Origin: Desulfuromonadales bacterium GWC2_61_20
GTDB lineage: Bacteria > Desulfobacterota > Desulfuromonadia > Desulfuromonadales > UBA2197
Direction: 5' to 3'
DNA: 46,799 nt
NCBI GenBank assembly: GCA_001799485.1
Contig: MGTO01000124.1
Location: forward strand, 1-46,799
Position numbers and translations under genes: made by a program. Shown piece after piece: positions 8,319 to 43,043 of this stretch (its first letter is position 1; every line of letters begins with the position of its first letter). Below the pieces are notes generated by a model. The model was not told where the DNA came from and ran no database searches. It worked only from the letters and a program-made list of their open reading frames with translations.

Positions 8319-8353
8319 TCAAGAGGGCGACCCTGACGGGGTCGCCCTCTTGA
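8319..8353. terminator. Hairpin terminator between convergent genes
   Basis: TCAAGAGGGCGACCC...GGGTCGCCCTCTTGA. Confidence 0.75.
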
Positions 8354-8422: not shown

Positions 8423-10144
8423 TTAGCCACAGACTCCGCAGCGATGGCACCCCGGCACACAACGTGACGTCAATTCCCCGAGTTGCGCTCGCTGGTATTC
8501 ACGCCAGAGATGACTACGACTGACCCCGCTGTCGAGTACTTCCCAGGGGAAATGTTCGTCTTCCCCGCGTTCACGGGTGACGAAAAAGCCCGGATCGAGA
8601 TCGACTTCGCGGCAGGCGGCGCGCAGGTTTTTCCCGGATGCCAGGATCGGCAACGTTGCCCCGACCCGGCGGTCGCCACGGGCGAAAAAGGCCTGGAGGA
8701 CCGCCGCGCGCAGCGACTCGCAGATCATCTCGACATTGCCGATGCGACTGATGGCGGAGCGCAGCTGTTTGAGGCGACCTTCGAGGATTTTTTCGTCGGC
8801 CATCGCTGCCCACTGCAAGGGAGTGAAGGGCTTGGGGATGAAAGGGTTGAAGGAGAGGGTGATGTGGCCGAGGCGACCGCGCTTCTTCCCTTCGGCAAGC
8901 CAGACTTCGCGGATACGACCGATGAGGGTGAGGAGTTCGTCCATGTCGGCGGCGTTCTCCGTCGGCAGACCGAGGAGAAAATAGAGCTTGAGATTGGGAA
9001 TCCCCCCGACCGCCAGGAGCTGCACCGCCCGCAGAATCTGCTCCTCACCGATTCCCTTGTTGATGAGATCGCGCAGCCGCTGACTCCCCGCTTCCGGGGC
9101 CAGGGCAACGGTGCGGTGGCCGCTGGCGGCGAGGGCGGCGACCTCCTCTTCTGTCAGGGCATCGAGGCGCAGGCTGGAGACCGAGACCGCGCCGTCGCGT
9201 TCGAGAATCGCCGCCTGCAAGGCGCCGATCTGGCTGTAATCGGAGACGGCAGCGCCGACCAGCCCCTGTTTCTTGCGCGCGCAGAGTCCCGCTTCGATCT
9301 GGCCGACGAGATTGGCCAGGCTGCGCTCGCGCGGCGGCAGGTAGAGGAAGCCGGCGGCGCAGAAGCGGCAGCCGCGCGAGCAGCCGCGGGAGACCTCGGT
9401 CAGGGCCATGTCGCCGAATTCGGTGGCACTGGTGGTGATAAAGGAGCGACTCGGCGAGGCGTCGAGATCGGCCAGCCACTGCCGCGCCACCCGCGGCGGC
9501 GCCGGCGGCGTCGCCCGGTAGCCGGCAATGGTACCGTTGATAGCGTAGTCGATCTGATAGAGGGAGGGGACATAGAGCCCGGGGAGCTGCGCCAGGGCAG
9601 CAAGGAGAGCCGGACGGGGGCCGCCGGCGCGCAGGACAGCGATCAGCCCGGGGAGGAGTGGTTCGGCCTCGCCGACGGCAAAGGCATCGAAGATCTCCGC
9701 CAGCGGCTCGGGATTGAGAAAGGCGCAGACCCCGCCGCAGAGGAGGAGGGGATGGCGGGCCTCGCGCTGTGCCGCCCACAAAGGCAAGCGGCCGAGTTCG
9801 AAGAGGGTCGGCAGGTGGAGGTAATCGTTCTCGAAGGAGATGGAGAAGGCGACGAGGTCGAAGTCGGCCAGAGGGTGGCCGCTCTCCAGGGAGAAGAGGG
9901 GATAGCCGGTGGCGCGGTGTTCCTTGAGGTCATCGGGATCGGGGAGGAAGAAGCGTTCGCAGAGGCAGTCGTCGCGGCTGTTGAGGAGATGGTAGACGGT
10001 GAGAAAACCGAGGTTGCTCATGGCCTGGTGGTAGGTATTGGGGAAGACCAGGGCCACCGTCAGCCGTCCCCCCCAGGGGTTGGCCGCCGCGCCGTCTTCC
10101 GCCGCCAGCCGCTGGCGGGCTTTGTCGATGAGGGTGCGGGACAT
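8423..10144 (-). CDS. Radical SAM protein (TIGR03960-like family)
   Basis: SRGCSRGCRFC (CxxxCxxC), N-terminal 'FPNTYHQAMSNLG', 'PFIPKPFTPLQW' and C-terminal CxxxCxxCGVC. Confidence 0.85.
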   Translation of the reverse strand: MSRTLIDKARQRLAAEDGAAANPWGGRLTVALVFPNTYHQAMSNLGFLTVYHLLNSRDDCLCERFFLPDPDDLKEHRATGYPLFSLESGHPLADFDLVAFSISFENDYLHLPTLFELGRLPLWAAQREARHPLLLCGGVCAFLNPEPLAEIFDAFAVGEAEPLLPGLIAVLRAGGPRPALLAALAQLPGLYVPSLYQIDYAINGTIAGYRATPPAPPRVARQWLADLDASPSRSFITTSATEFGDMALTEVSRGCSRGCRFCAAGFLYLPPRERSLANLVGQIEAGLCARKKQGLVGAAVSDYSQIGALQAAILERDGAVSVSSLRLDALTEEEVAALAASGHRTVALAPEAGSQRLRDLINKGIGEEQILRAVQLLAVGGIPNLKLYFLLGLPTENAADMDELLTLIGRIREVWLAEGKKRGRLGHITLSFNPFIPKPFTPLQWAAMADEKILEGRLKQLRSAISRIGNVEMICESLRAAVLQAFFARGDRRVGATLPILASGKNLRAACREVDLDPGFFVTRERGEDEHFPWEVLDSGVSRSHLWREYQRAQLGELTSRCVPGCHRCGVCG

Positions 10145-10207
10145 CTGTCGCTTTCTACGAGGGGAATATCGGGCTGGTCGATCTTACCTTATACCAACGG
10201 ACGCACC

Positions 10208-10238
10208 AAAGAAAAAGGGACCGCACGATGCGGTCCCT
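10208..10238 (-). terminator. Intrinsic terminator closing the dcw/ftsZ transcript
   Basis: Minus strand AGGGACCGCA-tcg-TGCGGTCCCT followed by TTTTCTTT. Confidence 0.85.
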
Positions 10239-10400
10239 GCAGACGAGGGAGTCGTCATTTCACTTCATACATCATCACTTCCCCCGCACTACGCCGGGCG
10301 GAGAACCGGCGCGAAGGGAGTGGTGCAGCTGCAAGAGGCTCGCGATCTTCAGCCCCGTTGTTGTTGTCCTCCCGACACAACAGACTGCGTCGGGAATTTC
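10208..10400 (-). ncRNA. Candidate structured ftsZ 3' UTR or 3'-UTR-derived sRNA complementary to the ftsZ 5' UTR
   Basis: About 200 nt between the ftsZ stop and the terminator, with three hairpins, a 15-nt perfect complement to 11600-11614 and two anti-SD elements (see findings). Confidence 0.5.
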
Positions 10401-10414
10401 TTTTTCCTCGACCT

Positions 10415-11572
10415 TTAATCGACGCGCTTGCGCAGAAAGGTCGGGATCTCGTATTCGGCATCGTCACCGGCGCTGGCGCTGACGGCGGCGCGCAGCCCGA
10501 CGGGAGCATCTTTTTGCTGATTGCGGATGAAGGTCGGCACGTCGCGATCGACCTTGTTCAGGGGGATGGCCCCTTTCAGGCGAATCTCGTCATGGCCGCG
10601 CCGACCCTTTTCAAAGCAGTTGCCGAAACCGGTGGCGATGGCGGTGACCTTGATCGTCTCCCCCATCTCCTCGTCGATGGCGAGGCCGATGATGATGTTG
10701 GCGTCTTCGTGGGCCTTTTCGTGGATGACGCGGGAGACTTCGTTGAAGTCGTCCATGGTCATGCTCGCCGAGCCGCTGACGTTGACCAGAATCCCCTTGG
10801 CCCCGGAGATGTCGATCTCCTCCAGCAGGGGACTGCTGATCGCCTGCTGGGCCGCCTCGGTGGCGCGTTTTTCGCCGGAGGCGACACCGATCCCCATGAT
10901 CGCCATGCCGCGCACGCTCATGACCGCACGGACGTCGGCGAAGTCGACGTTGATCAGGCCTTCGGTGGTGATGAGGTCGGAAATCCCCTGCACCGCCTGA
11001 CGCAGCACGTCGTCGGACGGTTTGAAGGCGTCGAGGATCCCCATGTTCTTGCCGGCGAGACCGAGGAGGCGGTCGTTGGGGACGACGATGAGGGAATCGA
11101 CGACCTCCTTGAGGGCGAGAATCCCTTCCTCGGCCTTGGTCGAGCGCTGCTTCCCTTCGCGGGAGAAGGGGCGCGTCACCACGCCGACGGTGAGGGCGCC
11201 GACTTCGCGGGCGACCTCGGCGATGATCGGGGCGGCGCCGGTGCCGGTGCCGCCGCCCATGCCGGCGGCGATGAAGACCATGTCGGCGCCTTTGAGGATT
11301 TCGGCGAGGCGGGCGCGATCCTCCAAGGCCGCCTCACGGCCGATCTCGGGGTTGGCGCCGGCGCCGAGGCCCTTGGTCAGTTTGCCGCCGAGCTGCACCT
11401 TCATCGGCGCCGCACTGCGGCGCAAGGCCTGGGCATCGGTGTTGGCGGCGATGAACTCGACGCCGCCGACCTTGGCCGCGATCATGGTGTTGATGGCGTT
11501 GTTGCCGCCGCCGCCGACGCCGATGACCTTGATTTTCGCCGTCTGGTCCACTGTCTCGTCAAACTCGAACAT
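10415..11572 (-). CDS. ftsZ: Cell division protein FtsZ
   Basis: [23 protein letters not shown] and C-terminal IPTFLRK. Start MFEFDE follows GAGGGAG. Confidence 0.98.
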
Positions 11573-11670
11573 GACTCCCTCACTTTCGGCTGTGCCGGTC
11601 GCCGGTTCTCCGCCTGCGACCGCCGGGTTGACTAACCATTCCACGACAATATGGCATCGGTCCGACGCGC

Positions 11671-12900
11671 TCAGAAGAACTCGCCGAACCACTCTTTCAT
11701 GCGTTTGGTGATACTGCCGAAGGTATCCTTCTGGCCGCGGCTGAAATTCTTTACCTCGACGTTGCGGCTGCCGTACTTGACCAGACCGACGCCGGTGGCA
11801 TAGACCGGCGAGTTGACGACGTCGATGAGCCCGCCGATATCCTGCGGCGAACCGCGCCGCACCGGCAGATTGAAGATCTGCTCGGCCAGCTCCGGCATGC
11901 CGGCGAGGATGGAGGTGCCGCCGGTGAGGACGATGCCCGAGGCGATGAGATCCTCGTAGCCGCTCTTGACGATTTCGCGGTTGACCAGGGTGAAGATCTC
12001 CTCGACCCGCGGCTCGAGAATCTCGGCGAGGAGCTGGCGCGAGAGGACCCGCGGTTCCCGCCCGCCGACAGAAGGTACCTCGATCGTCTCGGTCTTGCCG
12101 ACCATGGAGGTGAGACAGCAGCCGTAGGCCTGCTTGATCTTCTCGGCCTCGGCCATCGGCGTGCGCAGGCCGACGGCGATGTCGTTGGTCAGGTGGTTGC
12201 CGCCGAGGGAGAGGACCGAGGTGTGCTTGATCGCTCCGTCGACGTAGATGGCGATGTCGGTGGTGCCGCCGCCGATGTCGATGAGGGCGACGCCGAGTTC
12301 CTTCTCGTCGGCGGCGAGGACCGCCTCGCTCGAAGCCAGTTGCTCGAGAACGATATCGGCGACATCGACCCCGGCGCGGTTGCAGCTCTTGACGATATTC
12401 TGCGCGCTCGCCACCGCCCCGGTGACGATGTGGACCTTCGCCTCCAGGCGCACGCCGCTCATGCCGAGGGGCTCGCGGATGCCATCCTGGTCGTCGATGA
12501 TGAACTCCTGGGGGAGGATGTGGATGACTTCGCGATCCATGGGGATGGCGATGGCCTTGGCCGCGTCGATGACCCGGCGCAGGTCGTCGGCATTGACCTC
12601 GCGATTTTTGATGGCGATGATCCCCTGGGAGTTGAAGCCCTTGATATGCCCCCCGGCGATGCCGGCAAAGACCGACTTGATCTCGCAGCCAGCCATGAGT
12701 TCGGCTTCCTCGATCGCCTTGCGGATGGCGCCGACGGTGGCTTCGATGTTGATCACCACCCCCTTGCGCAGGCCTTTGGAGGGGCTGGTGCCGATACCGA
12801 CAATATCGAGACCGTCCTCGGTGAGGTTGCCGACGATGGCGCAGATCTTGGTGGTGCCGATGTCGAGGCCGACAATGATGTTCTCGCGTCCGCTGCTCAT
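11671..12900 (-). CDS. ftsA: Cell division protein FtsA
   Basis: [18 protein letters not shown] and a C-terminal amphipathic helix (MKEWFGEFF). Confidence 0.97.
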
Positions 12901-42994: not shown

Positions 42995-43043
42995 TATCAA
43001 ATGGGAACGGGCAGCCGATTTGGCTGCCCGTTCCCATTTGATA
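42995..43043. repeat. Perfect 22-bp inverted repeat (terminator or stabilising hairpin)
   Basis: TATCAAATGGGAACGGGCAGCC-gattt-GGCTGCCCGTTCCCATTTGATA. Confidence 0.8.

Follow-up and report, generated by a model that had tools for sequence, protein, structure and literature searches.

The ftsZ gene of Desulfuromonadales bacterium GWC2_61_20 (GenBank assembly GCA_001799485.1) is followed by a structured RNA element in its 3' untranslated region (3'UTR), and two segments of this element are complementary to the leader of the same gene, one to the loop of a hairpin in the ftsA-ftsZ spacer and the other to the Shine-Dalgarno sequence (SD) and the spacer next to it. The stretch of DNA analysed, called the window here, comprises positions 1 to 46,799 of contig MGTO01000124.1; all coordinates refer to it, and the features of the ftsZ transcript lie on its minus strand. 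In the order Desulfuromonadales the element recurs with its structure, its linkage to ftsZ and its complementarity to the leader conserved, and the partner motifs in the leader and the 3'UTR are present or absent together. We consider it somewhat probable that the 3' element pairs with its own leader and thereby represses ftsZ translation. Judged from the sequence comparisons, autoregulatory 5'-3' UTR pairing or a small regulatory RNA (sRNA) derived from the 3'UTR, repressing ftsZ translation in either case, would be the most likely function. From these patterns we infer that the pairing takes place in vivo, and likewise the sign of its effect and its action in cis or in trans.

A structured element 3' of ftsZ

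The ftsZ coding sequence (10415-11572) translates into 385 amino acids followed by a stop codon, and residues 1-385 were matched by 41 of 41 relatives with identities of 69-79%. The 3'UTR extends over ~200 nt up to an intrinsic terminator (10206-10238), which consists of a 10-bp stem and a U-tract, and no promoter-like site and no earlier terminator were found in the window between the ftsZ stop codon and the element. A proximal spacer with a local hairpin (10331-10414; fold z -1.86), which varies in sequence and length among relatives, is followed by the conserved element, matched by our covariance model R1 at 10207-10326 with 97.5 bits. The element folds into an extended hairpin, P1 (10273-10325), a second hairpin, P2 (10242-10256; GACGA[CUCCC]UCGUC), and the terminator, with a minimum free energy (MFE) of -48.6 and a z of -2.7. 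The inner stem of P1, CGCCGG/CCGGCG, carries the unpaired loop UUCUCCGC (10305-10298), which is complementary to the leader loop. An earlier reading made from the letters of the window (the sequence-only reading) had drawn this stem as cgccgg/ccggcg, extended by cacuccc/ggggaagug and with an open loop, and the MFE fold reproduced it. The same three modules were found 3' of ftsZ in the UTRs of 29 relatives, despite FtsZ identities of 69-79%.

Model R1, built from 22 sequences, was searched in 151 genomes sampled from the order, in 148 of which ftsZ was mapped. Among the 150 matches listed, beyond which lay 225 weaker ones, 104 were strong (at least 33 bits), with one strong match per genome. 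Just downstream of ftsZ and on the same strand were 101 of these 104, starting between -27 and 468 nt from the last ftsZ codon (median 81); the remaining three (G087, G006 and G094) were plain terminators that lacked both P1 and P2. With five weaker matches (27.6-31.1 bits) that also adjoined ftsZ, the total was 106 genomes. In the alignment of 94 strong matches, pairing reached 89.4% in the P1 inner stem, where 4 of 6 pairs had double changes, and 97.3% in the terminator helix, where 9 of 9 did. Because the P2 pairs were mis-registered in this alignment (25% paired), P2 hairpins were counted in a scan of their own: 53 of 91 elements have one around CUCCC, and 39 of these are identical in sequence. 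In family f4 the GC-rich P1 stem is lost, and a CUCCG loop is kept on an unrelated stem, opposite the leader loop UUACGGAGAAA. A dispersed repeat or miniature inverted-repeat transposable element was ruled out, because the assembly holds just two exact copies of the 15-mer described below; there is also one strong R1 match per genome.

Some features of the surroundings vary. The terminators of unrelated genes in the order (L387-L389 and many weak R1 matches) often share the stem GGGGACCG...CGGUCCCC, so the terminator sequence of the element is not specific to it. Two copies of a ~170-nt repeat, which resembles a small mobile or repeated insertion, lie between ftsZ and the element in L007 and L082 and shift the element ~400-480 nt downstream. 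In L019 and L021, long tandem arrays of the 9-nt unit caacggaca follow right after the terminator of the element, 200-330 nt past ftsZ.

A hairpin with a conserved loop in the ftsZ leader

The ftsA open reading frame ends at 11671, and the intergenic leader between ftsA and ftsZ comprises 98 nt (11573-11670). It contains a hairpin at 11596-11622, supported by the fold and by the hairpin scan (-14.0 kcal/mol), in which the stem cggucgc/gcgaccg shows GCGGAGAA (11613-11606). The sequence-only reading was only partly right about the loop; in the MFE structure CGG/CCG closes part of GCGGAGAA and AGAA stays open. The fold of the window leader alone is unremarkable (z -0.62).

Most relatives have a hairpin in the ftsA-ftsZ spacer, with stems that are wholly different among families and a loop that is kept as NCGGAGA. 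These homologous hairpins covary. In an ungapped alignment of 28 of them (A4), 82.7% of the cells were paired compared with 50.8% after shuffling, and all 12 of 12 pairs had double changes; the paired fraction is biased upward because the hairpin finder chose the 28 sequences, while the diversity of pair types is unbiased. The covariation score of the stem was 0.868, against 0.13-0.23 for controls with slid partners. A covariance model of the leader constructed from these 28 hairpins (R2) gave 55 matches at E <=1 in 154 loci, of which 52 were at the leader position and 24 were non-seeds, and no match in six outgroup loci. The first leader-hairpin finder missed many cases and was replaced; the mis-picks of the final one include L012, L026, L097, L108, L146, L158 and L170.

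Many families have a short conserved box, YMAAC(C) (gucAACC, caucAAC and guuAACC, for example), separated from the 5' side of the leader hairpin by 1-8 nt; it lies at 11625-11630 (minus strand) in the window and recurs in L002-L028. The box might correspond to a start of transcription, a site of processing or a -10-like element of a promoter close to ftsZ. Another observation concerns the last 40 nt of the leaders of family f11, in which an additional SD-like AGGGAGGG and an AUG lie 21 nt upstream of the ftsZ AUG and in frame with it, while the usual GAGGGAGUC-AUG is retained inside (L069, L075, L085, L097, L108, L118, L128, L141, L146, L151, L156, L160, L164, L168, L171, L174, L177 and L180). 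This upstream AUG could give a 7-codon N-terminal extension or serve as an alternative start.

Complementarity between the two loops

The leader loop and the P1 loop can form a contiguous helix around GGAG/CUCC. Among 99 loci with both motifs, a few of which have wrong leader picks, this helix has at least 6 bp in 89, at least 7 bp in 70 and 10-11 bp in 13, and its conserved core is CGGAGA/UCUCCG. Changes in the loops are compensated in several lineages. ACGGAGA/UCUCCGU occurs in L026 (f15) and in L090, L101, L162 and L176 (f23 g39), other members of g39 having GCGGAGA/UCUCCGC; GCGGAGU/ACUCCGC occurs in L112, L097 and L108; and L126 has GUGGAGAA in the leader and UUCUCCAC in the 3' loop. An extended pairing, CGGAGAAC/GUUCUCCG, is found in L007 and L082.

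The two motifs also occur together. Of 128 loci in which both flanks of ftsZ were available, 89 have both motifs at the hairpin thresholds used and 20 have neither, while the 3' motif alone was scored in 18 and the leader motif alone in one. On inspection, most of the 18 proved to be false negatives whose leader motif sits in a weak hairpin, a few had CUCCG hairpins far downstream that are due to chance, and L114, the single leader-only locus, does have a 3' hairpin. Both motifs were missing in at least six distinct clades, namely f1 g2, f23 g24, f9, f17 g18, f27 and, with a leader reading GCGAAGA, a subset of f8 g9. In 89 of the 128 loci the complementary segments sit in hairpin loops on both sides, and the stems covary. 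The claim that loops in the 3'UTR face the leader loop and the SD thus gained from order-wide conservation, from joint presence and absence and from a few compensatory changes, and had to be altered in its details.

The anti-SD in P2

The translation initiation region of ftsZ, consisting of the SD, the spacer and the start codon, reads GAGGGAGUC-AUG (11570-11581). In the window, GAGGGAGUC (11581-11573) is complementary over 9 nt to GACUCCCUC (10253-10245), which lies in P2 right before the terminator. The last 19 nt of the leader plus the AUG were compared with the 520 nt downstream of ftsZ in the 128 loci, and the longest Watson-Crick helix was recorded. A helix of 9 nt was obtained in 55 and one of 10-11 nt in 10 of the 128, always just 5' of the terminator; in loci without the element, the helix had 5-7 nt, which is the chance expectation. 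The helix extends past the generic SD into the spacer and, in some lineages, into the start codon. Variants of the SD are tracked by variants of the anti-SD, namely AGGGAGACA/UGUCUCCCU (L088 and L100), GGAGGGAUG/CAUCCCUCC (L021), GGAGGGAGUU/AACUCCCUCC (L029), AGGGAGUCAU/AUGACUCCCU (L110 and L128) and AGUCAUGA/UCAUGACU (f4 g5).

The sequence-only reading had assigned the anti-SD to another segment, ACUCCCU (10315-10321), located 3 nt upstream of the 3' arm of the 15-nt repeat. Its 7-nt complementarity to AGGGAGU of the SD, in the right register, was confirmed (10321-10315 versus 11580-11574). The segment forms the 5' side of the outer stem of P1; in relatives this strand of the stem is C-rich and variable. 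On the sequence comparison, the conserved partner of the SD is instead the P2 hairpin GACGA[CUCCC]UCGUC, which that reading did not mention.

The 15-nt inverted repeat of the window

In the window the loop-loop complementarity is part of a longer repeat. The segments GGCGGAGAACCGGCG (11600-11614) in the leader and CGCCGGUUCUCCGCC (10297-10311) in the 3'UTR, detected by pattern and repeat searches, are 100% complementary over 15 nt and 1288 nt apart. The sequence-only reading had reported this perfect 15-nt complement, and its statements on the minus-strand sequence all check out. The 15-mer with at most 2 mismatches has just two sites in the window, and shuffled windows had a mean of 0.41, with two or more sites in 4 of 100. 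Apart from hairpins, the window has no other exact 15-mer inverted repeat with arms at most 2 kb apart; 3 of 20 dinucleotide-shuffled windows had one. The source assembly (2.78 Mb, 79% complete) contains two exact copies and 3 sites with one mismatch, the same number as for a reversed control pattern. Considering the window alone, the repeat exceeds local chance only moderately.

Cofolding of the window leader with the 3'UTR gave a gain of -18.0 kcal/mol, compared with -9.7 +/- 3.6 for shuffled 3'UTRs (5 of 300 as good), and the duplex energy was -70.3, compared with -58.6 +/- 4.6 for shuffles (11 of 1000 as good). The 15-nt duplex of the window is a genome-specific extreme case; relatives retain a loop-loop core of 6-10 nt.

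Proposed mechanism and alternative explanations

These arrangements suggest a two-step contact. The ftsZ mRNA of this lineage would end in a module of ~120 nt made up of P1, P2 and the intrinsic terminator. The P1 loop UUCUCCGC would kiss the leader loop GCGGAGAA and nucleate the pairing, and the anti-SD GACUCCCUC of P2 would then cover the ribosome-binding site, so that less ftsZ is translated. This could happen within one molecule, as a contact between the 5' and 3' UTRs, or a 3' fragment protected by the terminator could act as an sRNA on other ftsZ transcripts and would therefore exert negative feedback on FtsZ synthesis. A broader proposal, which we hold with some doubt but regard as quite possible, is that this is an ancient, order-wide RNA feedback device in the mRNA of an essential division protein. 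Its two-site contact would fold the message back on itself, or a stable 3' fragment would titrate new transcripts, and FtsZ output and with it the FtsZ:FtsA ratio would stay constant.

Seven RNA runs, available as contigs only, held 4-8% of the sampled words, and most cover regions of ftsZ that are conserved, in sequences of relatives. In library X4, one contig of a relative joins 10341 to 10419 with a skip of 77, running from the end of ftsZ to P1, and in library X2 one spans 11493-11636, including the leader hairpin. The spacer between ftsZ and the element is as short as 9-30 nt.

Several results weigh against repression by such pairing. The helix ends of the loop-loop contact often carry uncompensated mismatches (A.C in 23 of 99 loci, A.A in 10, U.U in 3 and C.A in 3), and the compensatory changes reflect ~2 independent events for each position, with one or two events behind each type. 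The 6-nt loop core cannot covary because it never varies. Covariation across Desulfuromonadales is mixed, with covarying stems and several double changes in the loops on one side and an invariant loop core with often mismatched ends on the other. There are two true discordants, L173 with the 3' loop but no leader motif and L016 with the anti-SD alone. P2 forms a hairpin in just 53 of the 91 elements, its CUCCC is a generic anti-SD that could have many mRNAs as targets, and the 28 seeds of the leader stem came from the hairpin finder. Nested cofolding of 70 of the 94 elements, by a method that cannot model kissing loops and with shuffling that removes element structure and favours unstructured shuffles, gave a gain no better than that of shuffled elements (median z -0.3); in 6 of the 70, at most 2 of 40 shuffles were as good, and only the window stood out (z -6.2). 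Finally, the RNA contigs show no ends, strand or level, their uncovered parts are uninformative, and they are no proof of a single transcript.

Part of this evidence bears on the possibility that the leader hairpin and the 3' element are independent modules with coincidental complementarity, the former being a protein site, a 5' stabiliser or a standby site and the latter a terminator or stability element. The negative cofold test in relatives and the frequent mismatches at the helix ends would fit such an explanation, as would the cores themselves, which are SD-like (GGAG) and anti-SD-like (CUCC) and may recur for ribosome-related reasons. The GGA in the leader loop and that in the SD also resemble CsrA-type sites, but a CsrA gene was not found in the 79%-complete assembly. 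The absence of both motifs together in at least six clades, with hardly any clean loss of one alone, speaks against coincidence, as do the compensatory changes found in either helix and the location of both partners in loops whose stems turn over, and we regard independence as unlikely. We judge about equally improbable a mainly trans-acting sRNA, derived from the 3'UTR or transcribed from its own promoter, whose C-rich loops hit many SDs and for which ftsZ is one target or a minor one. A CUCCC right upstream of the terminator is in a typical seed position of sRNAs, and DinR pairs with ftsZ via a stretch upstream of its terminator (PMC10907235); an hfq gene is present in the genome, and in some genomes the element is 200-468 nt away from ftsZ. 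Against this stand the fit of the P1 loop to the motif shown in the ftsZ leader hairpin, the reach of the anti-SD complement into the ftsZ-specific spacer and start codon, with which it co-varies, the single-copy and always ftsZ-linked occurrence of the element, and the window sequence upstream of the element, which lacks a promoter-like site. A search for the two-site pattern CGGAGA-N12-50-GAGGGAGU in the 151 genomes gave no shared second target, but it decides little on other targets because the pattern is loose and barely above control (3 matches against 2 in the genome of the window).

The sequence-only reading had offered as an alternative that RNase III cuts the long-range helix and so excises a monocistronic ftsZ mRNA; cleavage might also destabilise that mRNA. 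The helix of the window, with 15 + 7 bp, would be suitable, and the 5'-3' UTR duplex of icaR is cut by RNase III (PMC7821165). Relatives retain 6-10 bp plus ~9 bp, and because these helices are short for RNase III and the long duplex is genome-specific, a conserved processing function of this kind is very improbable. An attenuator or leader that controls read-through from ftsZ into the downstream gene seems just as remote. That gene begins ~60 nt past the terminator on the same strand, and in 90 of 135 loci a homologue, which we take to be radical-SAM-like, comes after ftsZ in the same orientation. The element and the homologue are unassociated: 67 of the loci with the element have the homologue within 650 nt and 30 of the 97 do not, compared with 23 of 38 and 15 of 38 of the loci without the element. 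The element thus follows ftsZ and not the downstream gene, and its loops complement the ftsZ leader and nothing downstream. Pairing of the 3' element with the ftsZ leader, with repression of translation as its consequence, is the explanation that we prefer to these.

Relation to known systems

The level of FtsZ is critical for cell division, and to our knowledge RNA control of ftsZ consists of accessory enterobacterial sRNAs (DicF, DinR and StfZ). In the kissing-loop antisense control of plasmid copy-number and toxin-antitoxin RNAs, the two partners first recognise each other through hairpin loops of 6-8 nt that are complementary. They are cis-antisense RNAs with full complementarity, whereas the ftsZ partners are on the same strand, 1.3 kb apart, and complementary in the loops only. 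If the broader proposal of an order-wide feedback device is true, ftsZ would have a conserved bacterial 5'-3' UTR interaction and the first ftsZ riboregulator encoded by ftsZ itself, and such a self-encoded, order-wide regulator would indicate that bacterial communication between 5' and 3' UTRs can be ancient and under selection. No description of an ftsZ 3'UTR element in this lineage was found in the literature, with supplements outside the search.

The icaR mRNA of Staphylococcus aureus contains a UCCCC in its 3'UTR that pairs with its own ribosome-binding site and inhibits translation initiation (PMC7821165). Similarly, the CUCCC of the ftsZ 3'UTR complements its own SD, with a helix of 9 nt or longer in 65 of 128 loci. 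It differs from icaR in gene, phylum and sequence, nothing points to cleavage by RNase III, and a dedicated leader hairpin would provide an additional loop-loop contact. In the hbs mRNA of Bacillus subtilis, a 14-nt pairing between the 5' and 3' UTRs protects from RNase Y (PMC7821165). This is likewise a pairing of the two UTRs of one mRNA, but it stabilises hbs and does not block the ribosome-binding site; by analogy, a stabilising role of the ftsZ pairing is conceivable. According to the same review (PMC7821165), the icaR motif is missing in S. epidermidis, and close relatives do not share the functional 3'UTRs of hbs and other genes, whereas the ftsZ system is conserved across an order.

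OppZ and CarZ of Vibrio cholerae are autoregulatory sRNAs from mRNA 3' ends, for which processing by RNase E, dependence on Hfq and Rho termination have been shown. The ftsZ element similarly ends in the terminator of its parent mRNA and has complementarity to that transcript; it has no sequence relation to them, and its target would be the leader of the same cistron in a kissing-loop geometry. The enterobacterial sRNAs DicF, which is prophage-encoded, and DinR, which is freed from the dinI mRNA's 3' end, sequester the ribosome-binding site of ftsZ (PMC5069750; PMC10907235). That site would be the target here as well. Unlike DicF and DinR, which are encoded elsewhere and respond to other signals, the regulator proposed here would lie within the ftsZ transcript, is not homologous to them and has no Rfam match.

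Distribution and neighbouring features

A scan of 9900-11900 against Rfam 15 at E <=10 gave 12 matches, none of which was near its gathering score; the best on the 3'UTR was sX14, with 17 bits against a gathering score of 80. The motif, now represented by ~100 natural sequence variants, is not in Rfam. Outside the order, R1 gave weak matches alone (at most 33.4 bits) in 20 of 75 genomes from other orders of the class, the five best of which were not at ftsZ, and neither P1 nor the leader hairpin was found in the ftsZ flanks of the sister-order loci examined. A negative control of 80 ftsZ loci, retrieved by peptide patterns and belonging mostly to other lineages, contained a single locus with the element (L183), and it is labelled Desulfuromonadales. 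Of the 80 records listed for an 18-mer of P1, 22 hold the full element and the other 58 are chance matches in other phyla. Among the 22 full-element records listed, 21 are labelled Desulfuromonadales, Desulfuromusa, Geopsychrobacteraceae, Geobacteraceae or delta-proteobacterial and one is labelled Chloroflexota. The latter, L290, is a 4.9-kb contig with a full element at 74.2 bits and is probably mis-binned from this order.

Two loci of the sister-order genus g67 (L382 and L383) and L184 have a C-rich loop in the ftsZ terminator (CCCCCUCC, CUUCCCCCCUCC) and a G-rich SD (AAGGGGGUAGGG, AAAGGGGGUAG). The loop may represent a simpler counterpart of the anti-SD in bacteria outside the order.

The gene 3' of the element, at 8423-10144 on the minus strand, encodes a protein of 573 amino acids starting with MSRTLIDKARQRLAAE, which may be radical-SAM-like. 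Elsewhere in the window, perfect local inverted repeats of at least 15 nt are located at 2747-2786, 8319-8353 and 42995-43043 and are likely strong terminator hairpins.

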